In this document: positions 4,944 to 23,173 of the stretch, piece after piece
Layout: each line of letters opens with the position of its first letter
Position numbering within the stretch: the first letter of the stretch is position 1
Assembly (NCBI GenBank): GCA_944391625.1
Contig: CALXUG010000002.1
Span: 16,168 to 40,167, forward strand
Direction of reading: 5' to 3'
Origin: an uncultured Clostridia bacterium
Lineage (GTDB): Bacteria > Bacillota > Peptococcia > Peptococcales > Peptococcaceae
Length of the DNA stretch: 24,000 nucleotides
Program-made: the position numbers and the translations under genes
Notes under the pieces: model-generated
The model's database searches: none
Told to the model about the DNA's origin: nothing
Seen by the model: the letters and a program-made list of their open reading frames with translations, nothing else

Positions 4944-5075
4944 AAATAAATGTTTCAGTTTTGTAATAGATGCTGCGTTCATTTTTTGTGTAGCAACTTT
5001 ACAAACTGTCAATCTTAAACTTCAATTACTTTATTATACGGTTCAGATTTCAATAACTGTTTCAATTATTTTCAC

Positions 5076-6107: not shown

Positions 6108-6140
6108 AATTACACCTCTTCCCAAATATATTTTATAAAC

Positions 6141-6184
6141 ACAAAAGAACTTACCTGATGTTACTATTAGATAAGTTCTTTTGT
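6141..6184 (-). terminator. Perfect 13-bp stem-loop between the two islet genes (attenuator or terminator)
   Basis: ACAAAAGAACTTA (6141-6153) pairs with TAAGTTCTTTTGT (6172-6184) around an 18-nt loop. It lies just after the stop of the 6191-7468 gene. The trailing sequence is only moderately T-rich. Confidence 0.5.
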
Positions 6185-6190
6185 ATTTAT

Positions 6191-7468
6191 TTATGCGCCT
6201 TCATTAGTAACAGTTCCGTTAGAAAATGTCCATTTTTTCCCTTGTTCAGACAATTTCCACGCTGACTCGTTACCTGAATACCATCTTTCTCCTGCATTTA
6301 AGCCAAATTTTAATTGATTTTCATGCTCTTCTGCAAAAATTCTGTATGGAGTTGTTAACGCTCCTAAAGAATCATAGCTTAGTTGAGCAACAACTCTAAA
6401 TGCCCCATCATAAGTATTACCCTGATTACTTCCGGCATCTGAAGTAATAGACCAAAAATACGTTCTATTTGCAACTAAATCTTCTGTAGCTGCACACCCA
6501 ACACATTGTTGTATGATATTCGAACTATCTCCAAAACTAGTATCTAAATATGCATTTGGCAAATTAGTGGTGTAAGTTCTATGGGTTGTCTTTTGATAAG
6601 CATTTCCAGGATACTGACTGCTATTTTTTTCATTATAGAACATTAAAGTCATTTCTAATGCTTCGTTACTATCAACATTCAAATTGTTTAAGTTCGCAGA
6701 AGAAAATTCATGATACAATGTAGATCTATTTTTCCCACTTGATACATTTGAATCAAATTTTGCTTCAATATCATTCGGGTACCAATTATAACCACATGCC
6801 CTTCTATTGTTCCCATCACCTAAATGAGGGTTTGTACCATTACTAGCACATTTCGTTTTAGTACCATTTAATGAATTATACCAATAGATATTACCATCTT
6901 TTATATGATAACTGCTGTCTACAGCAAGCAATGGCATCGGCACATTATCTACTGTTGGATAACTTACATTTTCATATGGGTCATCTAGATTCATAATTAT
7001 ACTTTCCTGAGTATAACTTCCTTGTAAACTATATGAATTTTTCATTTCTTTTGCTGGAACTATTGTTTCCACTTTTTTTACTACAAGGTCATCTAAAGAA
7101 ATACTCTTATTAACTTCCAATTTTTCTTCATTTAATAATGTTTCATTTACAAAATCTACTTCATTTTTTAATTGCGTTAAAAGTTCTTCATAGGAAACTC
7201 CTTGTTCTTCATCCCGATATCCAATAGTAAGCTCTTCTCCAGCAACATTTACGCTACATTGTATTTCAGAAATCCCTTCTTCCAAAATCGCAATATTATG
7301 TTGATTCGATTCTGATGTCAACATAATATCGTTAAATTCATAAGATATTACCCGAACTCCATTGTTTATATCGGCTACTGTATCTGTAGCTAAAGCTGGA
7401 AAACTACTAAATGTAAATACTGATAAATTAATCAATGCAAATGCTGTCATCTTTTTTACTCTATTCAT
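6191..7468 (-). CDS. Hypothetical secreted protein (425 aa) with Sec signal peptide
   Basis: The track ORF runs 6191-7504. I place the start at the ATG at 7468 because GAGGAG sits 5 nt upstream. MNRVKKMTAFALINLSVFTFSSFPALA/TDT looks like a signal peptide with an AxA cleavage site. The C-terminal half is rich in N, S, T and Y. No family recognised. Confidence 0.65.
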   Translation of the reverse strand: MNRVKKMTAFALINLSVFTFSSFPALATDTVADINNGVRVISYEFNDIMLTSESNQHNIAILEEGISEIQCSVNVAGEELTIGYRDEEQGVSYEELLTQLKNEVDFVNETLLNEEKLEVNKSISLDDLVVKKVETIVPAKEMKNSYSLQGSYTQESIIMNLDDPYENVSYPTVDNVPMPLLAVDSSYHIKDGNIYWYNSLNGTKTKCASNGTNPHLGDGNNRRACGYNWYPNDIEAKFDSNVSSGKNRSTLYHEFSSANLNNLNVDSNEALEMTLMFYNEKNSSQYPGNAYQKTTHRTYTTNLPNAYLDTSFGDSSNIIQQCVGCAATEDLVANRTYFWSITSDAGSNQGNTYDGAFRVVAQLSYDSLGALTTPYRIFAEEHENQLKFGLNAGERWYSGNESAWKLSEQGKKWTFSNGTVTNEGA

Positions 7469-7646
7469 TTTTTCTCCTCGCTTTTTGATAGAATTTATGC
7501 GCATTCATTCTTCTATATAAATTAGGTACAATATTTTTTAGGATCCTAATTGATATTGTTCACAAAAAATATAACATATAATAGTTAATATAGTTCATTT
7601 TCCGTAATTATCGCTCATTTATTTGTAATTATCGTATCTTCAACTC

Positions 7647-9275
7647 TTACACCTTCACCAATGCTTCAACCCTTTTCCCATCCATAAACATCACTTCTAT
7701 TTTATCCTTCTGCAGTACTGTTATCCGTTGAATAATCTTCCGCACCAGCATGTCATTATAGTTGCTCAAATCGAAATTCATCTGCCCGATGATTTCTATT
7801 AACTCTTCATCGATATGTTCTCTATCTGCTCCGATTCGTTCTGCTATCTGACTATTTTGTTTCTCACTATATAATTGCTTCAGTTCGTTTTCTAACTCCT
7901 GAAACTTCTGATCAAAATAATCTAAGTCTGCGGATGTCATGCTCAATAATTCGGATAAATCCAATATAGATTGTTCAATACTTTTTATCTTTTCGTCTAT
8001 CTCCTCAGAATCTTCGTTTGGTACAAATTTTTCTGCTTTGCGCATTCCTTCTTTCAATAACCATTTTAACTCTTCCTGATTTTGAACATATTGATTTATC
8101 GCCCATAGGATTGCCTCATGCAAATCTGTTTCTTCCAATGTCGGTGATTGTCTGCAATATTTGAGCCCATTTTTTAACCGATTGATGCAGCGCCAAACTA
8201 CTTTTTTCTTCCCTTTCTTAGCCCAGGTCACTCTCCGATACGGTGTTCCGCAGTCTCCGCAAATTAGTAACTCTGTCAGCGCATACTGCCCACTGTATCT
8301 TCCCTGCCCAACATCATGAAAAGAATCTTTCTTTTTCACAGCATTCCGCTGTGCCAGTTCTGCTTGAATTAAATAAGCTACTTCTCTGCTTCGTATAGCT
8401 GGATGATGATCCTTTACATAATACTGCGGCAGCTCCCCCTTATTTTCTTTACGTTTATGTTCCAACATATCCACTGTGAATGTTTTCTGCAGCAGCACAT
8501 CACCCATATATTTTTCATTTAACAATATCCGTTTAATTGTTCCCGCCTGCCATTTTTCATTTCCTTTTACGGTTTTAATTCCTCTCTGTTCCAGCATGGC
8601 TTTTATCTGATATAAACTCATTCCAGACAAAAATGCCATATCAATCAATTGTACAATTCTTGCTTCCTGGGGAACAATTTTCCACTCTCCAGCTTTATTT
8701 ACATCAAATCCCAAGATTTTACAACCTCTTCTTAGTTTTCCCTGTTTATATTCTTTCTGTAAAGCCCAGGTTATATTCTTACTGATACTTTCGCTCTCTG
8801 CCTGTGCAAAGGAGCTATATAGTGTCAGGATCATCTCACTGGATATATCCAAGGTATTGATATTTTCTTTTTCAAAAATAATTGCAATTCCTTTTTCCTT
8901 CAACTTTCGAACATAATTCAAAGTATCCAGCGTATTTCTAGCAAATCGGGAAATCGATTTTACCAAAATCACATCTACTTTGCCTTCTTCACAAAGCTGC
9001 ATCAATCTTAAAAATTCTGTTCTGTTTTTTGTCCTGGTACCAGAAATACCCTCATCGGCAAAAATACCAATCAAAACCCAGTCAGGATTATTGGCAATCA
9101 ATTGTGTATAATAAGCTACTTGAGCATCAAAACTGGTCTGCTGATCCTCTTCATCTGTACTAACCCTGCAATACGCAGTCACCCATTTTTTCTTTGGCAA
9201 AATTGTTCTTACATTATGATATGCTGCTACTTCTTTTACCGGTATGCAAGTTACAGTTCTCTTTTCATTTGTCAT
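7647..9275 (-). CDS. Large serine recombinase (542 aa)
   Basis: Track ORF. Resolvase catalytic domain (YCRVSTDEEDQ with the nucleophile Ser, VKSISRFARN), recombinase domain, Cys-rich zinc ribbon (CGDCG...CINRLKNGLKYC) and a C-terminal coiled coil. AAGGAG lies upstream. Confidence 0.9.
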   Translation of the reverse strand: MTNEKRTVTCIPVKEVAAYHNVRTILPKKKWVTAYCRVSTDEEDQQTSFDAQVAYYTQLIANNPDWVLIGIFADEGISGTRTKNRTEFLRLMQLCEEGKVDVILVKSISRFARNTLDTLNYVRKLKEKGIAIIFEKENINTLDISSEMILTLYSSFAQAESESISKNITWALQKEYKQGKLRRGCKILGFDVNKAGEWKIVPQEARIVQLIDMAFLSGMSLYQIKAMLEQRGIKTVKGNEKWQAGTIKRILLNEKYMGDVLLQKTFTVDMLEHKRKENKGELPQYYVKDHHPAIRSREVAYLIQAELAQRNAVKKKDSFHDVGQGRYSGQYALTELLICGDCGTPYRRVTWAKKGKKKVVWRCINRLKNGLKYCRQSPTLEETDLHEAILWAINQYVQNQEELKWLLKEGMRKAEKFVPNEDSEEIDEKIKSIEQSILDLSELLSMTSADLDYFDQKFQELENELKQLYSEKQNSQIAERIGADREHIDEELIEIIGQMNFDLSNYNDMLVRKIIQRITVLQKDKIEVMFMDGKRVEALVKV

Positions 9276-9292
9276 ATTATGTTCATCTCCTT

Positions 9293-10117
9293 TTATACCA
9301 ATTTATCATTTATCATTAAACACTGAATGATTTCATCTGGATTCAATACTATTTTTTTCACGCTATGTTCAATCAGTTCAAAGTCTGGTTCACTTAAAAC
9401 TGTCTGTTGCTGATACAAGTTCTTTAATATTTTTGTGTTGTATGTATGATCCAACGCACTGCAATTCTGATATCGTTCAGCTGCCGCCTGATAAATCAGC
9501 GCCGCTATCTCTTCATCTGCCTTTTTCCGTTCTTTGATTTCCTGTAGTATTTCATTATTCATCTGCATGACAGCTAACGATAACCGAAATGGCTGTTCTT
9601 TTTCAATATCCAGCAGCGCAGGATGTTCTATAATCTGATTTTGTTTTGCCATCAGTTTTTCTTTTAATATATCATCGGTAATATAATTTTTTGTTGTTTT
9701 CCATTCACTTTGGCACTGCCAATTAACGATTGCGCCTATCTTTTCTCGATATACATGACTTCCACAATGCCCACAAATCAGTTTTGCACGAAACGCCTTC
9801 GGCCATTCTGTCTTTACTGCCCGATTACTTGCTTTCTTTTCTTTTAGCAGCTGCACTGCTTCCCATTGCAGTGGATCTATTAATTGCGAATAACCATTGA
9901 TACCACAGTACTCTTCTCGCTCTAAAATACGTTTCACCATATTTTTGTTCCAACCGCAATCATCGTCCCGATAAGCAACTTTTCCTTCCGCTAACCACTG
10001 AGCCAATTGCCCATAGGAATACCCCTGCTGATATTTGCTAAAAATCTGCTGCACAGCCTCCCCTTCTTTTGGATGCGCCACTATCACCCCATCTACAATC
10101 TGATAACCAAATGGCAA
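9293..10117 (-). CDS. Recombinase-domain plus zinc-ribbon protein lacking the resolvase catalytic domain (274 aa as called from TTG)
   Basis: Track ORF. It begins (L)PFGYQIVDGVIVAHPKEGEAVQQIF, which is the start of the serine-recombinase 'recombinase' domain. CGHCG...WQC forms a zinc ribbon. There is no S-R catalytic N-domain and no SD before the TTG. The true start is uncertain (see findings). Confidence 0.7.
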   Translation of the reverse strand: MPFGYQIVDGVIVAHPKEGEAVQQIFSKYQQGYSYGQLAQWLAEGKVAYRDDDCGWNKNMVKRILEREEYCGINGYSQLIDPLQWEAVQLLKEKKASNRAVKTEWPKAFRAKLICGHCGSHVYREKIGAIVNWQCQSEWKTTKNYITDDILKEKLMAKQNQIIEHPALLDIEKEQPFRLSLAVMQMNNEILQEIKERKKADEEIAALIYQAAAERYQNCSALDHTYNTKILKNLYQQQTVLSEPDFELIEHSVKKIVLNPDEIIQCLMINDKLV

Positions 10118-10165
10118 TCGTCTGTTTTTTTGTTTTTTCCTGTATTCACTTTTACCCCTCCATCT

Positions 10166-10591
10166 TTAACCCAGTCCTTGCAGCATTGCAGGCGCTGCTT
10201 TTTCATAATCGGGTTCTTCATCATTTTCAAACTGTATTTTTTCAGATAACCCTAAACTAATTGCTAAGGCCGCATCTACCTGCTGCATCACAGCTGCACC
10301 AAAATGACCCATGTATCGCCGCAATCTTTGCCGATCCAGAGTACGGACCTGCTCTAACAAAATTAACGTTTTATCCCGCAGCCCAAACGCTTCACCGGAA
10401 ATACAAATATGTGTTGGCAGATTGTGTTTATTCTGCTGGCTTGTTATTGCTGCTGCTATCACTGTTGGACTGTAATGATTCCCCACATCATTTTGAATAA
10501 TCACCACTGGCCGAATTCCTCCCTGTTCGCATCCAACAGATGGATTCAAATCAGCATAGTAAATATCCCCACGCCGCACTGCTGTTTTCAT
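10166..10591 (-). CDS. PemK/MazF-family endoribonuclease toxin with an acidic C-terminal extension (141 aa)
   Basis: Track ORF. RGDIYYADLNPSVGCEQGGIRPVVIIQND and LEQVRTLDRQRL are typical MazF/PemK segments. AAGAGGAGA overlaps the end of the upstream recombinase gene, and the ATG lies 7 nt after that gene's stop. Confidence 0.85.
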   Translation of the reverse strand: MKTAVRRGDIYYADLNPSVGCEQGGIRPVVIIQNDVGNHYSPTVIAAAITSQQNKHNLPTHICISGEAFGLRDKTLILLEQVRTLDRQRLRRYMGHFGAAVMQQVDAALAISLGLSEKIQFENDEEPDYEKAAPAMLQGLG

Positions 10592-10598
10592 ACTATTT

Positions 10599-12146
10599 TC
10601 ATCTCCTCTTTACATTCAATTTTTCCCGAAACTGAAATCCGCCAGATAAATAAAAAACGGCATCATCTTCCTCGGTTATCACAATTTTAGTAACCATCTT
10701 CAGAAACAGCTCCTCTGGAAAAACTTCTAACCGCTGCGGTCCTTTTTCTATTAGGCTTATCAATGTTTTAACCCGGTTGATTACTTGATTCCCCCGTACT
10801 CTCTGCATCAACGCTTCTCCTCTGGCTTGTTTCAACTGCTCATTCAATTCCCGAATTTTTTCTATAAAAATAGCAGATTCAAGATGCCCTCGACTTTGCA
10901 GCCTTGAAAGGACCTGAATCTGCTTTTGAATTTTTATTGTTTCTTTTCCTGTTTCTAACGAGATACTTTCTCCCAACTGGTTCTGATATAATAATTCCAG
11001 CTGCTGCAAAGCTGGCACTAATACTTTTTTATAATTTATCTTCAATTTATGATACATTGTCATAAATGCTTCGTAAATACTGTTTTCTTCTATTGCCATA
11101 ATCGGGCATTCTTCTTTCCCTCTGACATGGGTTTGACATACCCAATATAACTTACTCCCATTGGTTTTATAGCGCAGTTTACTTCCGCAATAATCACAAA
11201 ACAATTTATTCTGCAGTACTCGATTGTTTTTCATAGAAAGCGATTGCTCTGGTTTTATCTGCTCTATCAAACGCTGTGTTTTTTCTGCTTCTTCTTTTGT
11301 AATCATTGCATCCTGCGCATGTTCTATATAAAACTGTTCCCTCTGGCCTTGATTTGCCTTTCTCACATACGGTAACGTATCGGTTGTATAGGTTTTCTGC
11401 ACTAAGGCATCTCCAAAATATTTTTCATTCAATAACAGGTATCGAATACCTGATGCTGTCCACACACCATTATGTTTCTCTTTCGGCACTCTAAAATAAT
11501 TTAGCGTATCTGCAATCTTCTGACAGCTATTGCCAGCCAGAAACTGCCTATAGATCCACTGCACCACCGGCTTTTCCTGTTCATTGACGATCAGATTGCC
11601 GTCTTGCAGTGTGTACCCATATGGTGCACAGGTTGTAATAAATAACCCTTGCTCCATTCTGCGTTTAAACGTCCAGCGAATATTTCTGGATAAGGAACGG
11701 GACTCTTCTTCTGACAAACAGCCGAAAAAAGTAAGCAGCAGTTCATCATCCAACTCACTGGTATTGACATGTTCTTTTTCAAATATCACACTGATATTCA
11801 AACCTTTTAGTTTTCTTATATAAAACAGGCATTCCTCAATATTTCTGGCAAATCGGGATACCGACTTTACCAGAATGCAATCAATCTCTCCTGCCTGACA
11901 ATCTCTTATCATTTGCTGAAACCCTGGGCGCTTTTCCGCACTGGTTCCTGTAATTCCCTTATCGGAATAAATATCTACTAAAATCCAATCTGGGTGTTTC
12001 AAAATATATTCTCTGTAATAACTGATTTGAAACTCATAGGAGTTATTTTGGCTGTCTTCTTCGGTACTAACACGAGCGTAAGCACAGACTCGTTTTTTCT
12101 TTGTCTGCAGTTGCTTGATTGGCTCTATCACGAATACTTCTGGCAT
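10599..12146 (-). CDS. Large serine recombinase (515 aa)
   Basis: Track ORF. YARVSTEEDSQ catalytic motif, VKSVSRFARN, recombinase domain (APYGY), zinc ribbon (CDYCG...CQTH...C) and coiled coil. GAGGTG lies 7 nt upstream of the ATG. Confidence 0.9.
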   Translation of the reverse strand: MPEVFVIEPIKQLQTKKKRVCAYARVSTEEDSQNNSYEFQISYYREYILKHPDWILVDIYSDKGITGTSAEKRPGFQQMIRDCQAGEIDCILVKSVSRFARNIEECLFYIRKLKGLNISVIFEKEHVNTSELDDELLLTFFGCLSEEESRSLSRNIRWTFKRRMEQGLFITTCAPYGYTLQDGNLIVNEQEKPVVQWIYRQFLAGNSCQKIADTLNYFRVPKEKHNGVWTASGIRYLLLNEKYFGDALVQKTYTTDTLPYVRKANQGQREQFYIEHAQDAMITKEEAEKTQRLIEQIKPEQSLSMKNNRVLQNKLFCDYCGSKLRYKTNGSKLYWVCQTHVRGKEECPIMAIEENSIYEAFMTMYHKLKINYKKVLVPALQQLELLYQNQLGESISLETGKETIKIQKQIQVLSRLQSRGHLESAIFIEKIRELNEQLKQARGEALMQRVRGNQVINRVKTLISLIEKGPQRLEVFPEELFLKMVTKIVITEEDDAVFYLSGGFQFREKLNVKRR

Positions 12147-12192
12147 CGGTCTGCACCTCGCTTTCCTTTTGTACCACTGACATTACCACAAA

Positions 12193-12363
12193 TCAGAGTA
12201 AAAAGCTATCAAATATTTCATTTTGTACGCCAAGTTTTTGACAAATATACTGCTTGGCTCGCTGCATTTCTTCTTTTGTAATTTTTCCTTGCTGATATAA
12301 CAATTCCAGCTTTTCTGCTGCAGCATAATACATTACGATATTACTGATTGTAAGTGTATCCAT
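12193..12363 (-). CDS. Small hypothetical protein (56 aa), element backbone
   Basis: Not in the track. Hand translation: MDTLTISNIVMYYAAAEKLELLYQQGKITKEEMQRAKQYICQKLGVQNEIFDSFLL. The ATG lies 5 nt after the DUF4314 gene stop and is preceded by GGAG. No family recognised with confidence. Confidence 0.45.
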   Translation of the reverse strand: MDTLTISNIVMYYAAAEKLELLYQQGKITKEEMQRAKQYICQKLGVQNEIFDSFLL

Positions 12364-12368
12364 TTCTT

Positions 12369-12605
12369 TCACTCCAATTTCATTACCGGTTGCTGTTCCT
12401 GTATCACCTGAAATTCATCTTCCCCGGGAATCAAGGCTAAACTGCTGCCATTTTCCCAGCTTACATGAATGCTGCCAATATCATCTACAAATTTCACAAC
12501 GCCTGTCAAGCCAGATGGCATCTGTGTTTCGCCAGCCATACTCTGTAATTCAACTTTTGTTCCGGCAGGATACTCTCTTCTTAATCTCTCCACCTGATTT
12601 CTCAT
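12369..12605 (-). CDS. DUF4314-like protein (78 aa)
   Basis: The track ORF runs 12369-12758. I place the start at the ATG at 12605 (MRNQVERLRREYPAG...) because GGAGGT sits 6 nt upstream. ...VKFVDDIGSIHVSWENGSSLALIPGEDEF matches my memory of the DUF4314 family common in Firmicute conjugative elements. Confidence 0.65.
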   Translation of the reverse strand: MRNQVERLRREYPAGTKVELQSMAGETQMPSGLTGVVKFVDDIGSIHVSWENGSSLALIPGEDEFQVIQEQQPVMKLE

Positions 12606-13027
12606 CCATATACCTCCAAAATTAAAAATAAACAACACATCAGGCTGTTTATGGTCAATAAACATCATGGGAATCTCACCCCAATACACTGTATTGCTGC
12701 CCCCATTGCGTGCGGCGGATTGGTTACCGCTCAAGCTGTGGCTGGGCAGATGTATCATAATCCCTTTGTTATCATCCTGGCAGCCTGGCTGACCAATAAC
12801 CAGACATTTATCTTACTGTTTTTCGCTCCAATGATCAAACTCATTCTTCCTGGCGCAGTAAATAAAACGGCTCCTATAACAAAGAACGTACCTGATGGGT
12901 TTCCTATTTAGTTTTCAAAGAACCAAGTAGCAGGCTATTGCCTTTTATCTTTAACGCCAAAGCGTTAAATTCAGAATTTCTTTTCTAGCAGGATTTTAAA
13001 CTTGCTCATACTCAGCATTAGTTTTGT

Positions 13028-13213
13028 CTACAAACGCAGCACCATATCTGCATCAGGTTCAAAACGGGTTTGTCCCTGCTCATCTATGATTTGACGCATG
13101 GCCAGCTGCTGAATTTCATTTTTATAATGCTGCACAATCTCCAAAATTGCCTTTTCATCCTGCTCGGTTGCCTTGCATATTGTTGCATATGGAACTTTGT
13201 TCTTATTTGTCAT
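13028..13213 (-). CDS. Small helix-turn-helix protein (Tn916 ORF8-like), possibly shortened by an in-frame TAG (61 aa)
   Basis: Track ORF. ATGA start/stop overlap with the sigma-like gene. Reading through the TAG at 13028-13030 continues TKLMLSMSKFKILLEKKF to a TGA at 12971-12973. Confidence 0.6.
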   Translation of the reverse strand: MTNKNKVPYATICKATEQDEKAILEIVQHYKNEIQQLAMRQIIDEQGQTRFEPDADMVLRL

Positions 13214-13638
13214 AGCAGATCATCCATTTCCAAATACAGCCGCAACTGTTTTAAAATACTTTTTCGCTGATAGGTCACCGTTTGCCGAATCATGTCATAC
13301 AACTCTGCTATCTCCTGATCGGTTTTATTCAGAAAAAAATACAGTAAAATCAACTCTCTTTTTTGTGCTGCCAACTGCTCTAACGCCAAAGCTAATGCTT
13401 CATTGCGAACCAACACAAAATTTTCGCCAACAACAAAAACAGTCGGTTTTTTCAGTTCATCGGATACCGACAGTTCCAACAGCTCCTCTAAGGTTAAATC
13501 TTCTAAAAATTTTTCATGCTTTTTCTGCCTTGCATATTCCCGATAAATATCGCGAGTTTCATTTCTCAGTATGGTCATACAAAAATTATGAAACTGCTGC
13601 TCAACCTGTTTTTGCACAGACACAGAAAGCTCATTCAT
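13210..13638 (-). CDS. Sigma-70 region-4-like DNA-binding protein (Tn916 ORF7-like, 142 aa)
   Basis: The track ORF starts at a GTG at 13647. I prefer the ATG at 13638 (MNELSVSVQ...) with GGAGG 8 nt upstream. The C-terminal LILLYFFLNKTDQEIAELYDMIRQTVTYQRKSILKQL is a sigma-70 region 4 / LuxR-type HTH. Confidence 0.75.
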   Translation of the reverse strand: MNELSVSVQKQVEQQFHNFCMTILRNETRDIYREYARQKKHEKFLEDLTLEELLELSVSDELKKPTVFVVGENFVLVRNEALALALEQLAAQKRELILLYFFLNKTDQEIAELYDMIRQTVTYQRKSILKQLRLYLEMDDLL

Positions 13639-14007
13639 GGAAATCACCTCCTAGTATAATAATGATGTAGTCAAGAATGACTACTTGATTAATTAGTTTC
13701 TATACAGATAACAAAAGAATGTGTTCTTCCTTCATCAGATGTTATCCATACTAATCATCATGTCTGACGGTTCCTGATAGACACCGGATAAAACATAAGG
13801 TATCATCCTTTAGGATAGGACAAATAATGTATCACTCCTTGGGATGCTGTTTTAATCAGCCCATACCTACAAGAAAGTCAATTAGTCCATTCGGCAGGGT
13901 TTTATGTTTTAGCTGGTTGGGAGCCGGAAGGCCATACCCGAATAACACGCTAGGTTGTGTACCTGTCAGACTGGAAATGGATTCCTATCAGAAAGGAGCT
14001 TCCGCTC

Positions 14008-15324
14008 ATGTCAAACAAAATTATTTTTAATCTTGATGAATTATTCATCTCTGTTGGCATTGATGTCAGCGCTGACTTCTCATGGATGTCTATTGCACTT
14101 CCAAACCAACAGTTTGTAGGAAAGCCTTATAAAATCCTACACAATAGCATGGATTCCCTTTCAACCGCTGTTTCTAAAATAAAAGAAGCAGAAGAGTTGT
14201 ATTCTTTGGAAAGTCGCATTTTCCTCGAATCCACGGGAGTTTATCATTACCCACTCTTCTGCTATCTTCGTGATAAGGGTTTTAACTGCTCGGTTATAAA
14301 TCCTATCATCACTAAGAATAGCACAAATATCAACATACGAAAAGTGCATAATGACCGTTTTGATTCTAAAAAAGCTGCTTTAGTTGGTTTGAAACCTGAT
14401 TTAAAGGTTTCTCTTATGCCTTCTGACCTTGTTCTAAACTGCCGCAATCTCTCTCGTGAATACTACGATTTAATGGATAACCGCAGTGCTTATGTGAACA
14501 AGCTTCAAGGGGAACTGCGTATGGCATTTCCACAGTATCTTGGCATTTTCTCCAAGGTTACCACTCATACATCTCTTACCTTATTGGAAACTTATACGTC
14601 TCCATCTGCCTTTATTGCAGCCGACAAGCAAGAGATGATTGACACTATCAGGTCAACTGCCCGCTTTGGACTTACATATGCTCAGAACAAGTATAATGCC
14701 ATTATAAAGGCTGCTAATGAAGCCAATGAATTTGGTTACATCATTGACAGCAACATCAAGCGGATTCGCCTGTATATCAGTTTCATTCGCAAATATGATG
14801 AAGAAATCAACAATATTCTGCAAGCAATGCATGAACTCGTAAATGCTAATGAAGATACTGATTTTGTCAAACAGATTCACTTAATCGAAACATTTAAAGG
14901 TGCTGGCTTTTTATCTGCCGTATCTCTTATGGGAGAGATTGGTGATTTTTCTGCTTTTTCAAAACCAAAACAGCTTTTTGCTTACTTTGGGCTGGATCCG
15001 GCTGTAAAACAATCCGGTAAATTTGAAGGCACCAAAATTCAAATGTCGAAAAGAGGGTCTGTTATAGCCAGACGGGTTATTCATACCCTTACTTTACAAA
15101 GCATCAGTATATCTCGCACAGGAGAAGCAAAAAATCCGGTACTTCGTGATTACTATCTCAAAAAATGTGAATCAAAACCAAAGCTTGTTGCAATGGGCGC
15201 TGTTTCACACAAGGTATGCAACATCATATTTGCAATCCTAAGAGATAACAAACCTTTTGAAATCATGACTCCACAGGAGCATATCCAACAATACAATGCT
15301 GCTAAATGCCACATAGCTGCATAA
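14008..15324 (+). CDS. IS110-family DEDD transposase (438 aa)
   Basis: The track ORF runs 13957-15324. I place the start at the ATG at 14008 after GAAAGGAG. N-terminal VGIDVSADFS and LESTGVYH (DEDD RuvC-like domain). C-terminal GAGFLSAVSLMGEIGDFSAFSKPKQLFAYFGLDPAVKQSGKF (Transposase_20 domain). Confidence 0.9.
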   Translation: MSNKIIFNLDELFISVGIDVSADFSWMSIALPNQQFVGKPYKILHNSMDSLSTAVSKIKEAEELYSLESRIFLESTGVYHYPLFCYLRDKGFNCSVINPIITKNSTNINIRKVHNDRFDSKKAALVGLKPDLKVSLMPSDLVLNCRNLSREYYDLMDNRSAYVNKLQGELRMAFPQYLGIFSKVTTHTSLTLLETYTSPSAFIAADKQEMIDTIRSTARFGLTYAQNKYNAIIKAANEANEFGYIIDSNIKRIRLYISFIRKYDEEINNILQAMHELVNANEDTDFVKQIHLIETFKGAGFLSAVSLMGEIGDFSAFSKPKQLFAYFGLDPAVKQSGKFEGTKIQMSKRGSVIARRVIHTLTLQSISISRTGEAKNPVLRDYYLKKCESKPKLVAMGAVSHKVCNIIFAILRDNKPFEIMTPQEHIQQYNAAKCHIAA

Positions 15325-15551
15325 AATACTGTAAATTCAGCTGCATATCTTTTGAAAAAACGATATTCTCGCCAAGGGATAACTACGCCCTTTTTTAACA
15401 GAATTTATTTTTTTTATTTCGCTATTGACATTTATTAGCTGGACTTTCCCAATCAGAGAAAGGAGATTGCAATTTCCCTTTATATATAAAACGTAGTTTT
15501 TCTCGAAAAAGCAAAAAAGGAGCAAAAATTTCTCAAAAATTTTTAAAAAAT

Positions 15552-15595
15552 AGAAAGACACAAGAATCAAACTGAGCTGACTCTTGTGTCTTTCT
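15552..15595. other. Strong 14-bp perfect stem-loop (IS110 right end, or a terminator read on the minus strand)
   Basis: AGAAAGACACAAGA (15552-15565) pairs with TCTTGTGTCTTTCT (15582-15595). On the minus strand it is followed by ATTTTTTAAAAATTTTT. No minus-strand gene lies upstream of it. Confidence 0.5.
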
Positions 15596-15823
15596 TGATA
15601 TGTGAATCGTAATACACCTAAAATGCCATACTGTTCCTGTCTGAAACATTGAAATTCACTTTAGAATATCCTGATACTGTATTCTGATTCTTTTTATTCT
15701 GCAACTTATTCTCCGTTTATCTTATTAATAAACTTTAGTTCATATAATTGCTGTATCATCTTACATTCAACCAACCTTTTCTGTCAGTTAAAATAAATTA
15801 GAATGAATATGAGGTGAATTGCC

Positions 15824-16177
15824 ATGTTTGATTTTACTCAACCTTTAGCCGATGTGATAAAACGGGCGCGGGAGCACCATGAGCTGACGCAAACCCAACT
15901 GGCTGAGCAGATTAATATTGATACCCGCACAGTACTCAACATTGAAAACTGCAAAGGGAATCCCAAAATGCAGGTTTTATTTCCGCTTATCCGCACACTC
16001 AACGTCGATCCTAACGATATTTTTTATCCGGAGCGTTTAAAACAAAACTCTAAACGCAATGACCTGCACCTTTTAGTTGATACCTGCTCAGAGCAGGAAG
16101 CCGCTGCTTTAATTGCCATCATAGATTCTATCTTGAAGGTAATGCGTAACCAGGGACCAACCAATCTGCAAAAGTAA
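15824..16177 (+). CDS. XRE-family helix-turn-helix transcriptional regulator (117 aa)
   Basis: Track ORF. LTQTQLAEQINIDTRTVLNIENCKGNP is a Cro/C1-type HTH. GAGGTG lies 7 nt upstream. Divergent from the sigma-like gene, as orf9 is from orf7 in Tn916. Confidence 0.85.
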   Translation: MFDFTQPLADVIKRAREHHELTQTQLAEQINIDTRTVLNIENCKGNPKMQVLFPLIRTLNVDPNDIFYPERLKQNSKRNDLHLLVDTCSEQEAAALIAIIDSILKVMRNQGPTNLQK

Positions 16178-16220: not shown

Positions 16221-16394
16221 TCATTGGTTGACCGTCATTTTTAGTTGTACAACATTAATCTCATTTGTCTGTTTACACTTAGGGCAATAAAGCGGAAAAT
16301 TCAGCAATACTGTTTCCGGCAGTACCTTGATTCTTGTTTTCCCTCCGCAAACCGGACAACGAACCCAAAAAGAGTCCTGCTTAGACACACTCAT
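16221..16394 (-). CDS. Cysteine-rich KTR-type small protein (57 aa)
   Basis: Not in the track. Hand translation: MSVSKQDSFWVRCPVCGGKTRIKVLPETVLLNFPLYCPKCKQTNEINVVQLKMTVNQ. CPVCGxKTR ... FPLYCPKCK is the pattern I recall for 'cysteine-rich KTR domain' proteins of Tn916-like elements. Confidence 0.75.
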   Translation of the reverse strand: MSVSKQDSFWVRCPVCGGKTRIKVLPETVLLNFPLYCPKCKQTNEINVVQLKMTVNQ

Positions 16395-16887: not shown

Positions 16888-16980
16888 TTACATAGTTTCG
16901 ATACGATTTTGCTTTACCACATTGATGCTGATCTCCTGTTTACACTTTGGACAATAGAGTGGAAAGTTTAACACAGTAAT
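16888..16980 (-). pseudogene. 5'-truncated second KTR gene (C-terminal ~30 codons only)
   Basis: Hand translation: ITVLNFPLYCPKCKQEISINVVKQNRIETM*. It aligns with the C-terminal half of the intact KTR protein, but the DNA is clearly diverged. The N-terminal CPVCG half is missing. The break coincides with the stop codon (16981-16983) of the first AT-rich cargo gene. Confidence 0.65.
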
Positions 16981-17409
16981 TTATTCCCCTTGCGAAAAAT
17001 CTACCCAAACATAACTGGATCCATCTTTTTCATTGAAAACAGATCTCAAACTACCCCACTCAAATTTTAATGGAACCATCGCAAATTCTTGTTGCAACCA
17101 ATTATCATTTCTTTTTTTCCGCTCCAATTCCCGCTCCTTACTCCAATCATTCCAAGATGGAATTTCATCATTATCTTGAATGGACAATAAGACATACTTT
17201 AACGATTTATTATCTTGTTCAAAATATAGCCTCACTATAAAAAACATTTCCCCACTTTTTCGTGGTTTCAAATACAATTCTATATTGGTATTAATATCAT
17301 AAGAATATATTTCATCCTCACCAATCATCTCAAGAAACTTTGTTAATCCCATATACGGCATTAATATAAATTCATCAAAAGTTATATATCCATTTATTTG
17401 ATCTATCAT
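16981..17409 (-). CDS. Hypothetical cytoplasmic protein (142 aa), last gene of the AT-rich cargo block
   Basis: The track ORF runs 16981-17427. I place the start at the ATG at 17409 (MIDQINGYITF...) with GGAGG 8 nt upstream. No TM segment or signal peptide. It is separated from the kinase gene by 245 nt that contains a TATAAT, so it may have its own promoter. No family recognised. Confidence 0.55.
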   Translation of the reverse strand: MIDQINGYITFDEFILMPYMGLTKFLEMIGEDEIYSYDINTNIELYLKPRKSGEMFFIVRLYFEQDNKSLKYVLLSIQDNDEIPSWNDWSKERELERKKRNDNWLQQEFAMVPLKFEWGSLRSVFNEKDGSSYVWVDFSQGE

Positions 17410-17654
17410 TAGATATCCTCCTTCCATTACAAATTATAGGCAATTGTATAAGTCTAAAAACTGCTTAACAAAGCCATTTTTCAGCACGTATATTTATACG
17501 TTTACTCCACTATTTCTAGCATAAATATGCAATCAGTACTGGTATCGCCCTAAAAATGGCGTTTTATTACTTCGACTTTTACAATTTCCTAATGAATAGT
17601 AATTCATTTGTAAAATATACATATTTTATAAAAATATTGTAAGCCGTCTTTGAA

Positions 17655-18553
17655 CTACAGTAATATATCGACCCAACTATAATCTTCTTTTTTATTATAA
17701 TTTGCAGCCAAGTAAAAAAGTGTAAGATATGCTTGCATTGCTTTCAAATAATCAGGATTAACCACAATACTCAATTCATTTTGATACGCTTGTAAAAATG
17801 CAAGAATCAATTCTTCGTCTGGGTTTTCGTTACAGATAGTAGCAAGGTCTTGATAGTAATATCCGTATGAACATAACTCAAAATCAATCGGGGTAAATTG
17901 TGAGTTATTTTTAATCAAGTTATATGAATAGAAGTCGCCATGAATTAACCCTTTTGTATTTTCTTTCATGGACATCGCCTTCATTATACAGTTAATTTTA
18001 TCGCCAGCATCAACTGCAATGTGAAATATGTTTTCATCGAAAAATCCCATTTTGCATCCTAATGAAATTCTTTCCAGAAAAAAATCAATTCTTTCTTCAT
18101 CAAATGGTAATCTTGGGCATCGTTTAGCGATATTAGTATAACGCATACTTGCCTTATGGATTTTAGCCAGTAATTTCCCAATAGCAGAATAATCTGTTAA
18201 AGTAAGTTCCTTTACTTCTGCCTCTTCACCATCAATCCATTCAGTTATAATATACAAAGTATTTTCATATTTGGTAACATATTCCTGCTCTTTATTCTTG
18301 ACAGGTTTTTGTACAGGCAACCCATTTTCTTGTAAGAAACGAAGATACTCCATTTCATACTTAAGTGCTTCATTGGAATATGCGTTGATACCAAACAAAG
18401 AGGCATCATAATCTTGATTATATGTTTTCAATAGATATATGCCATCGTTCGAAACAATTTTCCAAACGCTATTCATATTACCCACACTTTTTCCGTGGTA
18501 TATGTATCCATATCATAGTTCATTAGAATTTGATTTACGAAATCCATCTTCAT
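17655..18553 (-). CDS. APH/CotS-type phosphotransferase (kinase-like fold); apparent -1 frame break at an A5 run
   Basis: The track ORF 17655-18485 has YLLK (ATP-binding Lys), LIHGDFYSYNL (catalytic loop) and IDFE (metal-binding Asp). An ATG at 18553, 18 nt after the radical SAM 2 stop and preceded by GAAGGT, opens MKMDFVNQILMNYDMDTYTTEK in the other frame. This joins the main ORF through a -1 shift at the A5 run (18488-18492). Confidence 0.75.
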
Positions 18554-18571
18554 AACACATTACCTTCTAAA

Positions 18572-19951
18572 CTATTCAGGTAGAATTGGACTATTAGTAG
18601 TTATAATGCTATATAAATCCCTAACCATAAAATCCAGAGTTGTTTTAGCATGAACACAAAAGCCTGGGTCAATGGCATCATATACCGATTTTTCAGAATT
18701 ACGCATACCGTTTATAGGACATCCACCACCACATATTCCCAATGCTTTGCATGATAAACATTCATCTTTATTGACAGGACTGATCTGGCACCATTTCTGC
18801 ATTTCATCCGATTGTTCTAAAGGATCTCTGCTACTAACATCAGTAAAAAAGAACTCTTTGTTTTCAATACAACCTTGGCATATACCAATTCGACCATCCG
18901 GCAACACAACAATCTGGCTACCTGAAGTAGCTGCACAATCAGATAAATACGGAGTACCATCAACAAAAGCTTCTACCTTCCGATTAATACGATCCTCATA
19001 TATACCACGAATTCTTGCGATCTTAAAGAAATCTACAATAAATTTTGATGCCTTTTTGTAATAATCGGTACTCATTTGAAAATCCGGGGTCGAATACAGC
19101 AAATTAAAGCTTACAGCATTGATTTGATATTTATCAAGTAAGGATATAATATCATCTGGATTACTAATTGTTTTTTCTGTAAGAGTTATAGATAGCCCAA
19201 CTTCATATTCACTTTCCTTAACAAGTTCAAGCACTTCCAGTAAATTATCATAAATAGGATTTCCTGATTTATTCACACGATTAATGTTTGATTCGAAATC
19301 AATACCATCAATCGAAATGGAAATTGCCACATTATTCTCTTTCAAAAAATGTATTTTTTCCTTATCAAGGAGCAATCCATTTGTAACCATTGAGAAATTC
19401 ATTTCAGCGGTAATTTCATTATTGATTTGCATTTCCTTGCATCTGTCAATCACATACTTCAAAGTTTCAAAGTTTAACAATGGCTCTCCGCCATAGAAAA
19501 TGATTTCTTTGCTATGCCCAAACCATTCCGGATGTGTTTTATTTTGGAAAGAAAAATACTGGAGTGCCTTATCAGCAATTTCCTTTTCCATCATCGGCAT
19601 TTGATGCTGCATAATATTTGTATTTGCATTGCCCAAAAAACAATATTTACATGCCAGATTACATTTTTCGGATAAAATTAAATACATAATCGTTGGATAT
19701 GGTGTAAACAATTTTTCTCTAACACGGTTCAAAAGCAAAGCGTCTTCAGCCGGACTATTAACTATAATCTTGTTCTTGACCAACTCGCTATATACCTCAA
19801 CAGGCAAGGAACTTGGTAGTTCATTCGCCGAAACAGATGAAATAATAAAATGATCTTCTTCTCTCACATAAACAGGTTGTAATTGCAAGCTATTGTAATA
19901 AGCATAACTACCGTCATCCATTTTAAATGTATGCGAAAATTTCGATAACAT
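18572..19951 (-). CDS. Radical SAM / SPASM-domain peptide-modifying enzyme 2 (459 aa)
   Basis: The track ORF runs 18572-19987. I prefer the ATG at 19951 (MLSKFSHTFKMDDGSYAYYNSL...) with GAGG 7 nt upstream. The ATG at 19987, which overlaps the upstream stop, is an alternative. CNLACKYC (C97/C101/C104), YGGEPLL, twitch-like CAATSGS...GICQGC, and CLSCKALGICGGGC (CX2CX5CX3C SPASM motif). Confidence 0.9.
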   Translation of the reverse strand: MLSKFSHTFKMDDGSYAYYNSLQLQPVYVREEDHFIISSVSANELPSSLPVEVYSELVKNKIIVNSPAEDALLLNRVREKLFTPYPTIMYLILSEKCNLACKYCFLGNANTNIMQHQMPMMEKEIADKALQYFSFQNKTHPEWFGHSKEIIFYGGEPLLNFETLKYVIDRCKEMQINNEITAEMNFSMVTNGLLLDKEKIHFLKENNVAISISIDGIDFESNINRVNKSGNPIYDNLLEVLELVKESEYEVGLSITLTEKTISNPDDIISLLDKYQINAVSFNLLYSTPDFQMSTDYYKKASKFIVDFFKIARIRGIYEDRINRKVEAFVDGTPYLSDCAATSGSQIVVLPDGRIGICQGCIENKEFFFTDVSSRDPLEQSDEMQKWCQISPVNKDECLSCKALGICGGGCPINGMRNSEKSVYDAIDPGFCVHAKTTLDFMVRDLYSIITTNSPILPE

Positions 19952-19980
19952 AGTTTTTCCTCGCTTTCCATAGATAATAA

Positions 19981-21324
19981 CTACCATAATAAGAAGTCAT
20001 TTGATTCAATCATTAGACGATATAAATTTTCTTTGTATTCTGCACTGCAATTTCGTGGTGCCAACTTCTCAATGTCCACTAAGTATAAATCATCTATTTT
20101 TGTAATTTCATTATAGTTGGCAATTCGACAACCGCCACCACAAACATATCTTAGGTCACACTGATTACAAGGCGTAAATGTTTCAATACTTGACAATTTA
20201 CGTGCAGTTTTTCTTAAACGTAATATTTCAGAAAACTCATCCTCACGTATATTACCATATTTTTTCACTTCATAAACCCGGCCACAAAAAGATACATCTC
20301 CCTGAGAATTTACCGTAAGAGAGCCATATCCACAATTACGAAATATCGTGTTATATTGATGATTTTTCACAAACAATGTTAATTCGTTATTGGGGTATAT
20401 TTCCTCACAAAGTTTTTTTATAGTTTCTGCATAAGCGGCATTGCGTTCCTTAGAAGATTTCACTTTCCTACCATCAATAATTTCGTTTCCGAAAATAATC
20501 AAAAAATCTTTATCTTCATATTTATCCACCAAAGCATTGCCAAACTCTACATATTCATTAAAATATGTTTCCGCATAACCGTATAGTGGAGTAACAATGA
20601 TAGACGTAAAAATGCCTGCATTAAGGAATTGATCCACCGTTTTCAGTGCTTTATCAAATGCACCTTTTCCTCTAATTTCAGCATTCACGTTTTCGTTAAA
20701 CCCATCGATGCTTATCTGAATTTCATCGATATATGGTTTAGCTTCTTCAAATAACGCTTTTGTCCAAGCCGCTCCATTTGATAGCACTTGAGTATACATA
20801 TTATATTCTTTTGCAATTATTAATGCTGGAACAAATGATTTGGATAACGCAACTTCACCGCCTGTTAAGATTAATTTTGTAGCACCAGCTTTGGCACTTT
20901 TTTTAATCAGAGTAATGATTTCTTCTGTTGACAATTCATTTGCAAAAGAATTGTCTGCATACATAAAACAATGCTTACATCTCAAATTACAGTTATTAGT
21001 CAAATAAATGCGCAATTCAAATGAATCGTCATCAAAAGATTCGAAAGTATGTTCCAGATGTTTTCCTTCAATTTGAGCCAATACATATTTTACATCTTCT
21101 TCGTAGCCGTCAAATTGTTTGAATGTATCACCAACTGTACTTTTTCTAAAAATATGTTGAAAAATATCCCGCTGCGTTTGAGTTTCCAAAACAATCCAAC
21201 TCCCATTTTGGGGTGATATATATAACCAAAACCCATAACGGTGGATAATTGTTATATCGGATGGTAAAGAGTATATTTTATTTTCATCAACGCTACAAAC
21301 AAAATTGTTATATTCAATATCCAT
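19981..21324 (-). CDS. Radical SAM / SPASM-domain peptide-modifying enzyme 1 with N-terminal RRE-like extension (447 aa)
   Basis: Track ORF. GGAG lies 7 nt upstream of the ATG at 21324. CNLRCKHC (C112/C116/C119), LTGGEV, CGYGSLTVNSQGDVSFCG, and CNQCDLRYVCGGGC (CX2CX5CX3C). The first ~100 aa (…GSWIVLETQTQRDIFQHI…DVKYVLAQIEGK) look like a PqqD-type peptide-binding domain. Confidence 0.9.
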   Translation of the reverse strand: MDIEYNNFVCSVDENKIYSLPSDITIIHRYGFWLYISPQNGSWIVLETQTQRDIFQHIFRKSTVGDTFKQFDGYEEDVKYVLAQIEGKHLEHTFESFDDDSFELRIYLTNNCNLRCKHCFMYADNSFANELSTEEIITLIKKSAKAGATKLILTGGEVALSKSFVPALIIAKEYNMYTQVLSNGAAWTKALFEEAKPYIDEIQISIDGFNENVNAEIRGKGAFDKALKTVDQFLNAGIFTSIIVTPLYGYAETYFNEYVEFGNALVDKYEDKDFLIIFGNEIIDGRKVKSSKERNAAYAETIKKLCEEIYPNNELTLFVKNHQYNTIFRNCGYGSLTVNSQGDVSFCGRVYEVKKYGNIREDEFSEILRLRKTARKLSSIETFTPCNQCDLRYVCGGGCRIANYNEITKIDDLYLVDIEKLAPRNCSAEYKENLYRLMIESNDFLLW

Positions 21325-21345
21325 AAAAATTCTCCATATAAGTCG

Positions 21346-21377
21346 ACAAGGTCAATGATAAACATCATCGACCTTGT
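21346..21377 (-). promoter_or_regulatory. Intercistronic stem-loop between the peptide gene and radical SAM 1
   Basis: Minus-strand read ACAAGGTCGATGAT-GTTT-ATCATTGACCTTGT: 14 bp with one G-U pair. No T-run follows, so this is more likely an mRNA-stabilising, processing or partial-termination element than a full terminator. Confidence 0.6.
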
Positions 21378-21393
21378 TCGAAACCGAATGCAA

Positions 21394-21504
21394 TTAGCGT
21401 GTGCCAGTTTTTCTGCAGTTACCTACGCATCTGCCACCGATTGTTCTGGAGCAAGATGTGTTCGTACCAAACATTTTTTTTGCATTGTCCTTGTTTGCTG
21501 TCAT
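21394..21504 (-). CDS. Candidate RiPP precursor peptide (36 aa)
   Basis: Not in the track. Hand translation: MTANKDNAKKMFGTNTSCSRTIGGRCVGNCRKTGTR*. GGAGGTG lies 6 nt upstream of the ATG at 21504. It is the first gene of the operon, directly upstream of two SPASM radical SAM genes. Confidence 0.65.
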   Translation of the reverse strand: MTANKDNAKKMFGTNTSCSRTIGGRCVGNCRKTGTR

Positions 21505-21550: not shown

Positions 21551-21578
21551 ATTGTACTCTTTTAAAATTATTTGTCAA
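21551..21578 (-). promoter_or_regulatory. Near-consensus sigma-A promoter of the peptide operon
   Basis: Minus-strand read TTGACA (21578-21573), N16, TACAAT (21556-21551), about 45 nt upstream of the peptide ATG. Confidence 0.55.
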
Positions 21579-22590: not shown

Positions 22591-23045
22591 AGAATAAAAA
22601 ATCCGCAGAAAGAGGTAAAGGAAATGAGTAACACCTACAGCAAAGAAGAACGATTAGAAGCATTGAAACTGGCAGATGAAATCGGTCCGGTAGCAACAGC
22701 ACAACGCCTGAATATCAATCTGAACACCCTCTATAACTGGCAGAGCAAAGCAAGAAAACAGGGTATCACAGCAGAACATCCAACCCCCAAAACAGAAAAA
22801 GAATTGCGGGAAGAAGTATTAGCACTGCAAAAACAACTGAAAGAACGAAATGAAGAAGTCGAAATCTTATAGGCAGCCTTAGGTTTTTTTGCCAAACGCC
22901 AGAAGGGATGACAAAGCATCAGAGAATACAGTTCATAGAACAGACAGCTGGTCAATGGCCTGTAAAAAAGATGTGTCAGGTATTACAGATTTCTGAAGCC
23001 GGATATTACAAATATCTGCGTCAGAAAACAAAACCGCAGAAAACA
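22582..23045 (+). mobile_element. IS3-family insertion sequence remnant (left part only; ends approximate)
   Basis: orfA followed by the first ~45 codons of orfB in the -1 frame. Most of orfB (the DDE domain) and the right end are missing. Confidence 0.7.
22624..22872 (+). pseudogene. IS3-family transposase OrfA (HTH plus leucine zipper) with TAG where the frameshift window should be
   Basis: Track ORF MSNTYSKEERLEALKLADEIGPVATAQRLNINLNTLYNWQSKARKQG…EEVEIL*. Reading past the TAG gives AALGFFAKRQKG*, i.e. the conserved EILKKAxxFFAK region. The usual A-rich slippery site is replaced by TTA TAG. Confidence 0.7.
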
Positions 23046-23093
23046 ATTACCTTGTCACTAATTAATCTGCTCTCAAATTTCCTCCAAAGATAA
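22908..23093 (+). pseudogene. IS3-family transposase OrfB N-terminal fragment
   Basis: Track ORF. QRIQFIEQTAGQWPVKKMCQVLQISEAGYYKYLRQK matches the HTH_21-type N-terminus of IS3 OrfB. Similarity ends near 23045 and unrelated AT-rich sequence follows. Confidence 0.65.
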
Positions 23094-23173
23094 AATCTGT
23101 ACTAAGGTTAGAATATAAACAGTACCTGGATGAGAATAGCTATATAAGCAAAAAGATTTCATCTGTAAGGAAA

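Follow-up and report, generated by a model that had tools for sequence, protein, structure and literature searches.

The 24,000-nucleotide stretch analyzed here (the window) covers positions 16,168 to 40,167 of contig CALXUG010000002.1 (GenBank assembly GCA_944391625.1) from an uncultured Clostridia bacterium of the Peptococcaceae, and carries on its minus strand a 36-codon open reading frame (ORF) followed by two genes for radical S-adenosylmethionine (rSAM)/SPASM enzymes, designated rSAM-A and rSAM-B, and by a kinase gene. The product of the ORF, MTANKDNAKKMFGTNTSCSRTIGGRCVGNCRKTGTR, contains cysteines at residues 18, 26, and 30 and is proposed to be the precursor of a peptide that is made on the ribosome and modified after translation (RiPP) and that is matured by the downstream enzymes. 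The features of this cassette are listed below, in the order in which they are transcribed.

21578..21551, minus strand: promoter, with a -35 element (TTGACA, 21578-21573), a 16-nt spacer, and a -10 element (TACAAT, 21556-21551)
21517-21511, minus strand: Shine-Dalgarno sequence GGAGGTG, separated from the ATG by a 6-nt spacer
21504..21394, minus strand: proposed precursor peptide gene, 36 codons and a stop (ATG at 21504, TAA at 21396-21394)
Within the 36-residue peptide: putative leader, about residues 1-13, MTANKDNAKKMFG
Within the 36-residue peptide: single core module, residues 14-36, TNTSCSRTIGGRCVGNCRKTGTR
21481-21474, minus strand: run of eight adenines (A8) comprising the last base of Ala8 (GCA), Lys9-Lys10 (AAA AAA), and the first base of Met11
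21381..21343, minus strand: intergenic stem-loop (core stem 21376-21347), between the peptide stop codon and the ribosome-binding site of rSAM-A
21324..19981, minus strand: rSAM-A, a radical SAM/SPASM protein of 447 amino acids with CxxxCxxC at residues 112-119 and the full seven-cysteine SPASM motif
19987..18572, minus strand: rSAM-B, a radical SAM/SPASM protein of 471 amino acids; the first 7 nt of its gene lie within the end of rSAM-A
18553..17655, minus strand: APH/CotS-like kinase gene, interrupted by a frameshift of 1 nt that leaves a 26-codon fragment (18553-18473) and a 276-codon body that begins at GTG 18485

The translation signals, near-consensus promoter, and composition for which the initial annotation had singled out this ORF are all present. 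From Thr14 to the C terminus the peptide contains seven Ser/Thr and five Arg/Lys residues and no acidic residue. The GGAGGTG sequence is invariant across the closely related loci L001, L181, and L182, and GGAGG-type sites are likewise found 5' of the peptide genes in the more divergent loci L170, L173, L176, and L090-L096. The promoter matches the sigma-70 consensus at 11 of 12 positions, ranks first among the 27 promoter-like sites found between 16.8 and 22 kb, and is conserved in L001, L181, and L182/183; since 27 sites is the number expected by chance in this interval, only the rank and the conservation of the promoter count as evidence.

Gene callers give a different frame at this position, a 50-residue product (P0001) that begins at ATG 21546. 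The 42 nt (14 codons) peculiar to the longer frame vary freely, with many non-synonymous changes in L001 that spare the 36 codons downstream, and ATG 21546 coincides with the predicted start of the transcript or precedes it. As the additional segment evolves like non-coding DNA and its ATG is placed in this way relative to the transcript, the 50-residue start was rejected in favor of the 36-codon reading. The peptide gene is, consequently, one that had previously been either left unannotated or mis-started by gene callers.

Comparison of the close alleles (window, L001, L181, and L182/183) revealed purifying selection on the 36-codon frame. Relative to the window, L001 differs by six synonymous codon changes and one non-synonymous change, L181 by six and two, and L182 by four and none, which gives 16 synonymous versus three non-synonymous codon differences over the three pairwise comparisons, and third codon positions account for 10 of the 13 variable columns among the four alleles (binomial P=0.0016). 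The peptide is also retained well beyond this group. More than 280 homologues of rSAM-A were found. In every locus of the cassette with enough sequence, the peptide gene lies immediately upstream of rSAM-A in the same orientation. In L090-L096, L170, L173, and L176, a tblastn search placed a peptide of 51-75% identity directly 5' of homologues of rSAM-A (45-59% identity) and rSAM-B (41-59% identity). This conservation across distant clusters, whose enzymes are only 45-60% identical, provides the stronger support for the status of the ORF as a gene. Taken together, these comparative data indicate that the 36-codon ORF is genuine, under purifying selection, and co-inherited with both rSAM enzymes, in agreement with the original proposal of an unannotated, precursor-type peptide gene in a radical-SAM operon.

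The family to which the peptide belongs is small, with about 45 homologous sequences. A profile built from the peptides of these loci returned 46 clusters of family peptides from 5.8 billion proteins, and an exhaustive hidden Markov model (HMM) search of 1.84 billion representative proteins returned 18 matches, of which ∼15 were judged to be true on reading the sequences; P0218 (a eukaryote-like repeat protein), P0220, and P0221 were set aside as non-members. Eight residues are nearly invariant in the family (Cys18, Arg20, Gly23, Gly24, Cys26, Gly28, Asn29, and Cys30), and the conservation of the three cysteines among homologues, which the initial annotation had suggested be checked by tblastn, is thus borne out in a frame that also shows synonymous bias. 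Scans of Pfam and NCBIfam found no model for the window peptide or its two-module relatives, even at E<=10, and, in the literature that could be searched, no paper was found on the FibroRumin system (TIGR04136) or containing the peptide motif. Within the window itself, a tblastn search with the family peptides (E<=10, word size 2) produced only noise and a regular expression of the motif was used instead; C.R..GG.C.GNC matched once in the six-frame translation, at the 36-codon ORF.

The family peptides are built from a leader of ∼13 residues, typically M-[VTI]-A-x-x-K-x-Y-x-K-[LM]-x-x, and from a module with three cysteines, N-x-[D/E/S]-C-x-R-[P/T]-I-G-G-x-C-V-G-N-C-R-K, which is present as a tandem pair in most members and as three copies in P0215. 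The window clade has a single module, as do the scattered members P0156, P0161, P0164, P0165, and P0166, which indicates that one module is a viable unit. Collapse of a tandem repeat during assembly was considered for the window clade and excluded, as the single-module structure recurs in five different alleles, on more than 20 contigs that are independent of one another. P0156 corresponds to the L090 peptide less exactly one 21-residue module, and some of the single-module forms, located on contigs of less than 1.3 kb, may have arisen by collapse of the repeat during assembly. Most members end in a short tail with a terminal Trp; the subgroup nearest to the window (P0148, P0149, P0150, and P0213) ends in Arg.

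The leader had been described as unusually short for recognition by a RiPP recognition element (RRE). It is indeed short, at ∼13 residues; this is, however, no oddity of the locus and corresponds to the conserved norm of the family. The AlphaFold model of rSAM-A (mean predicted local distance difference test score, pLDDT, of 94) has within residues 1-90 strands in 25-46 and helices at 49-59, 64-70, and 75-87, with a pLDDT of about 96. SkfB, CteB, and SuiB, all maturases that contain an RRE, can be aligned with the model from end to end; EpeE is also among the structural matches. The predicted N-terminal domain of rSAM-A therefore appears to have an RRE-type layout, with which recognition of such a short leader would be compatible.

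Between the peptide gene and rSAM-A, the window contains the predicted stem-loop with a folding energy of -24.2 kcal/mol (z -3.8 to -4.75), and no shuffled sequence folds equally well. The core stem is unchanged in L001 despite a neighboring 15-nt indel, and is preserved in L181 through a U.G wobble pair. A stem-loop was found in every peptide/rSAM-A spacer examined (z -3.0 to -5.2), with stem sequences that are unrelated across clades; those of L090, L091, L093, L095, L170, and L176 are non-homologous hairpins at the same position, and a U-run follows the hairpin in six relatives. The downstream stem-loop of the initial annotation is thus a positional feature of the whole family, and the conservation of its position without conservation of its sequence supports a role in adjusting the level of peptide message relative to that of enzyme message. 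One spacer departs from the usual arrangement: in L173 (610-861) it measures about 250 nt, against the usual 70-100 nt, and the arms CAAGGCC and GGCCTTG enclose an internal inverted repeat (CTCTAAAAACCC ... GGGTTTTTAGAG), which looks like a small element inserted in the usual hairpin.

Both enzymes have the CxxxCxxC motif and a complete set of SPASM cysteines. rSAM-B passes the model for the FibroRumin system peptide maturase (TIGR04136) with 447.9 bits against a cut-off of 400, over residues 14-463 of its 471, and NCBI applies the same name to a member of the 90% identity cluster that contains rSAM-B. The next-best families are PapB, CefB, anSME, DynA, and the SCIFF maturase; rSAM-B falls below the cut-offs for PapB (NF047865, 147.3 bits against 340) and for the SCIFF maturase (TIGR03974, 105.7 bits against 425). 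Its best relative of solved structure is CteB (2e-25). For rSAM-A, the nearest relatives are StsB, the closest named family (NF045574, 121.2 bits against a cut-off of 625, residues 13-406), and SkfB (1e-17). As the nearest characterized relatives of both enzymes form thioethers (StsB and SkfB for rSAM-A, PapB and CteB for rSAM-B), thioether cross-linking is, by analogy, the likeliest chemistry for the peptide, and a thioether-type product, as first proposed, would be the most reasonable expectation.

Proteins of Clostridiaceae bacterium Marseille-Q4143 fall into the same 90% identity clusters as the enzymes of the window. In the complete genome of this organism, the rSAM-A homologue (P0183, QUO20758.1) is annotated with 394 amino acids and stops abruptly within the SPASM motif (...CDLRYD), and its accession number differs by 31 from the one given to the FibroRumin maturase, QUO20727.1. 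Perhaps the genes are not neighbors in this genome, or one copy may be damaged. A scan of a genome collection found only distant homologues of rSAM-A (31-37% identity), without rSAM-B and without this peptide, and these served as the outgroup. Distant homologues of rSAM-A with no rSAM-B partner (31-40% identity; L010-L029 and L097-L169) are paired with other conserved small peptides encoded 100-250 nt upstream. One type has 33 residues, for example MKKIKITWKNKKVKKDARINSMYCFKSCDKNQN, and occurs in Oribacterium, Helicobacter valdiviensis, Campylobacteraceae, Desulfamplus, and Lachnospiraceae; a second, ...GCF[TA]QC...W, occurs in Bacteroidales. Scans of Pfam and NCBIfam gave no match to either type.

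The fourth gene of the cassette, the kinase gene, is an optional component. It is found 3' of rSAM-B in L170, L173, L176, L179, L182, L184, and L186 and is absent in L091/092, L093, L094, and L187. Its presence tracks with residue 21 of the peptide: six lineages combine C-x-R-T with a kinase and five combine C-x-R-P with its absence, with no exceptions. L181 shows both changes within the immediate group of the window. There, rSAM-A belongs to the 90%-identity cluster of the window enzyme, the kinase has been reduced to three fragments by large deletions (L181:4860-5700 versus window 17350-18620), and the peptide carries T21P together with R25N. Five substitutions are packed into 15 nt of this allele, a density that could reflect gene conversion or selection. 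An apparent restriction of the kinase to the Arg-ending peptide subgroup was considered and discarded, as L184 and L186 carry a kinase with peptides that end in Trp. From this covariation, Thr21 is hypothesized to be the likely target of the kinase.

A more specific version of this hypothesis is a previously undescribed hybrid product, in which the three-cysteine modules would be cross-linked by one sactionine-type and one non-alpha-type enzyme and Thr21 would in addition be phosphorylated or dehydrated by the APH-type kinase. On this reading, loss of the kinase would be accompanied by replacement of Thr21 with Pro, and a phospho- or dehydro-residue and a proline would be structurally equivalent at the turn that precedes Ile-Gly-Gly. 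We regard the hybrid product in this full form as a tentative and somewhat doubtful proposal.

Collectively, the sequence comparisons point to the following model for the cassette, which we consider probable as a whole. The peptide, rSAM-A, rSAM-B, and kinase genes would form a small cassette with its own promoter on a low-GC mobile island, in which the peptide gene is placed first and has the strongest ribosome-binding site. The stable stem-loop would most likely raise the level of peptide message over that of enzyme message, either through partial termination or through protection of the 3' end. The N-terminal segment of ∼13 residues would act as a recognition leader to which the RRE-like domains at the N termini of the enzymes bind, and the remainder of the peptide would constitute a single copy of the three-cysteine module that is doubled in relatives. 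Both rSAM/SPASM enzymes would most likely convert the three cysteine thiols to intramolecular thioether bridges, with rSAM-A resembling the enzymes that attach to alpha-carbons (sactionine formers) and rSAM-B those that attach elsewhere (ranthipeptide formers), to give a compact, basic, cross-linked peptide, and the kinase probably acts on Thr21. In this model the gene, its selection, and its co-inheritance are observed in the comparisons; its interpretive parts are the chemistry, where the leader ends, what the hairpin does, and which residue the kinase targets.

Several observations weigh against this model. rSAM-A lies below the cut-off of every named family. The cassette includes no gene for a protease or exporter in any of the loci examined, in which it resembles SCIFF-type systems. 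The window hairpin has no U-tail and is not called by a terminator scan, which makes partial termination less certain than stabilization of the transcript in the window clade. The perfect agreement between Thr21 and the kinase reduces to approximately two independent events on a neighbor-joining tree of rSAM-A. Finally, the kinase of the window is itself frameshifted. The 26-codon piece (MKMDFVNQILMNYDMDTYTTEKVWVI) matches the N terminus of the intact 299-residue alleles P0202, P0205, and P0207 in close relatives, and comparison with these places the frameshift near codon 23, at about GTGTGGGTAAT; an A5 run, GGAAAAAG, had been considered as the site, and the comparison displaced it a few bases downstream. 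Because many independent contigs carry the same frameshift, it is taken to be a real allele and not a sequencing error.

Of the alternatives, the one that survives best accepts the precursor and questions the cross-links: the cysteines would bind a metal or form disulfides, and the rSAM enzymes would perform an epimerization, a carbon-carbon cross-link, or a methylation. SPASM enzymes catalyze many types of reaction, DynA, anSME, and cyclophane formers are among the matches of rSAM-B, and the structures matched by the rSAM-A model include those of the epimerase EpeE and of SuiB. Conservation in the peptide, however, falls on Cys, Gly, Asn, and Arg and not on the aromatic residues used by cyclophane formers, and the top characterized relatives of both enzymes are thioether formers. 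We consider this alternative unlikely.

Slightly less likely still is a lanthipeptide-like product, in which the kinase would phosphorylate Thr or Ser, elimination would yield a dehydro residue to which a cysteine adds, and the rSAM enzymes would carry out other tailoring. The co-occurrence of an APH-family kinase gene with Thr21 fits such a route, and APH-like kinases are known from class V lanthipeptide clusters, where they initiate dehydration, and from linaridin clusters. None of the cassettes, however, contains a gene for a lyase or cyclase, and the five kinase-less Pro lineages retain the same three cysteines and both rSAM genes, so the cysteine chemistry is independent of the kinase. 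The kinase of the present system otherwise resembles those of class V lanthipeptide and linaridin clusters in its APH fold and its location in a RiPP cluster, with a peptide Thr that tracks with it, and differs in the lack of a lyase or cyclase partner, in the rSAM-centered cluster, and in being dispensable in half of the family.

A very improbable alternative takes the ORF for a regulatory leader peptide, or for an ORF that arose by chance in the 5' untranslated region, with the hairpin acting as an attenuator of the rSAM genes and the true substrate encoded elsewhere. In its favor, the ORF is short and a strong hairpin follows it directly, ahead of the enzyme genes. Across clusters whose enzymes are 45-60% identical and whose synonymous sites have diverged heavily, it is nevertheless the amino acid sequence and not the RNA that is conserved; most relatives carry a tandem duplication of the core, the hairpins are mutually non-homologous and do not overlap the ORF, and the motif is found in no other ORF of the window.

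Equally remote is the suggestion, made when the ORF was first described, that the A8 run is a slipped-strand contingency locus that switches translation from Met1 on and off, since the run within codons 8-11 varies in length through synonymous substitution alone (GCA to GCC or GCT, and AAA to AAG), being A8 in the window and L182/183, A7 in L001, L181, L173, and L176, and A4 in L170. In favor of a switch, the run is uninterrupted and the window has just two others of eight adenines; against it, three such runs are fewer than the 12.5 expected in shuffled sequence. Tract length is thus not conserved among the homologues, while the Lys-Lys pair is (KKMFG or KKMYG in the subgroup), and no variant longer or shorter by one base was found among the 17 contigs with an identical peptide or among five further alleles (>20 contigs), in all of which the frame is intact. 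The comparisons do not support a phase switch and suggest that the run is simply two lysine codons.

The thioether-forming cassette proposed here can be set against several known systems. It is related to the FibroRumin system (TIGR04136) through rSAM-B, which scores above the curated cut-off over its full length; that name covers the enzyme only, and no NCBIfam or Pfam model matches the peptide. StsB, which among the named families comes closest to rSAM-A, installs three Cys-to-Gly sactionines in a hairpin arrangement (PMC10288494), and its precursor in Streptomyces sparsogenes, StsA, shares with the present peptide three cysteines and conserved glycines. The hairpin-type thioether peptide of the initial annotation is close to the StsB product, yet the relation is one of resemblance and not of membership: rSAM-A is not a member of the family (121 versus 625 bits), StsB uses a separate RRE protein, StsC, where the domain is fused in rSAM-A, the cysteine spacing is C-x-C-x-C in StsA and C-x7-C-x3-C here, and the present cassette has in addition a second rSAM enzyme and a kinase.

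The SCIFF peptides and ranthipeptides (CteA-CteB, and PapA-PapB of freyrasin) likewise combine a short, cysteine-rich precursor with an rSAM/SPASM maturase and have neither protease nor exporter, and CteB and PapB are, respectively, the best solved relative and the second-best family of rSAM-B. PapA, like the peptides of this family, repeats a short cysteine-containing motif. Its Cys-X3-Asp motif is, however, absent here, where neither Asp nor Glu occurs in the core of the window peptide; none of the SCIFF models matches the peptide, rSAM-B scores below both the PapB and SCIFF cut-offs, and there are two maturases in place of one. Two adjacent rSAM maturase genes in a single thioether-peptide cluster are also a feature of thuricin CD (TrnC/TrnD; PMC12093266), which has two different precursors and dedicated export; the present cassette has one precursor, with internal repeats in its relatives, and its two rSAM enzymes belong to clearly different subfamilies. 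On these comparisons, the system is best classed as a radical-SAM-modified cysteine peptide, with a two-enzyme cassette and optional kinase, a very short leader, and a modular three-cysteine core as its distinctive features.

The cassette is located in a low-GC stretch (30-37%); at the window's left end, the genes for malate:quinone oxidoreductase and fumarase (1-4.2 kb) have 43-51% GC. Also in the low-GC stretch are genes for three large serine recombinases, a MazF toxin, and an IS110 transposase, together with an IS3-type ORF, and in the mobile-element regions 4200-16000 and 22600-23100 the GC content falls to 29-41%. The neighboring features are as follows.

7647-9275 and 10599-12146: serine recombinase genes
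9293-10117: recombinase fragment
10166-10591, minus strand: MazF/PemK toxin gene
13957-15324: IS110 transposase gene
17427..16981, minus strand: gene for a 148-residue protein, the last gene on the minus strand, with no family match and found only in near-identical strains
22624-22872: IS3-type OrfA

In L181, the cassette lies between unrelated chromosomal genes, and similarity to the window begins 2-3 nt upstream of the -35 element. This difference in context, with similarity that starts just upstream of the -35 element, indicates that the cassette moves as a unit that includes its promoter. No plasmid record matched the cassette, and no viral contig was found to encode the peptide. The 148-residue protein probably lies outside the conserved system.

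Two further features of the region are recorded here. An Rfam match to the pemK RNA (RF02913; 12665-12761, minus strand; 40 bits versus a gathering score of 34.8) overlaps the start of a DUF4314 ORF (12369-12758), ∼2 kb upstream of the MazF/PemK toxin gene and on the same strand. A KTR zinc-ribbon gene (PF14205), which encodes 57 residues rich in cysteine, is found at 16221-16394 on the minus strand, and a 28-residue ORF ∼500 nt away (16888-16974, minus strand) resembles the C-terminal half of KTR (MLNFPLYCPKCKQEISINVV...) and may be a truncated copy.

Named hosts in the profile search include Dialister hominis, Clostridium sp. WILCCON 0269, and metagenome-assembled genomes of Synergistaceae, and the hosts of the family, among which are also relatives of Clostridiaceae bacterium Marseille-Q4143, are anaerobes of the human and animal gut. 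The peptide adds a precursor family of ∼45 sequences with a clear motif to an enzyme family so far known by its database name only, and illustrates how gene callers can mis-start such a gene, here at 50 residues, or miss it. The covariation of Thr21 with the kinase, together with the series of intact, frameshifted, and decayed kinase alleles, gives a specific and inexpensive hypothesis on phosphorylation in an rSAM peptide pathway. As the minimal cassette comprises one peptide, two enzymes, and an optional kinase, it is directly testable in Escherichia coli and could give insight into how a very short leader and a repeated core serve two different rSAM maturases.

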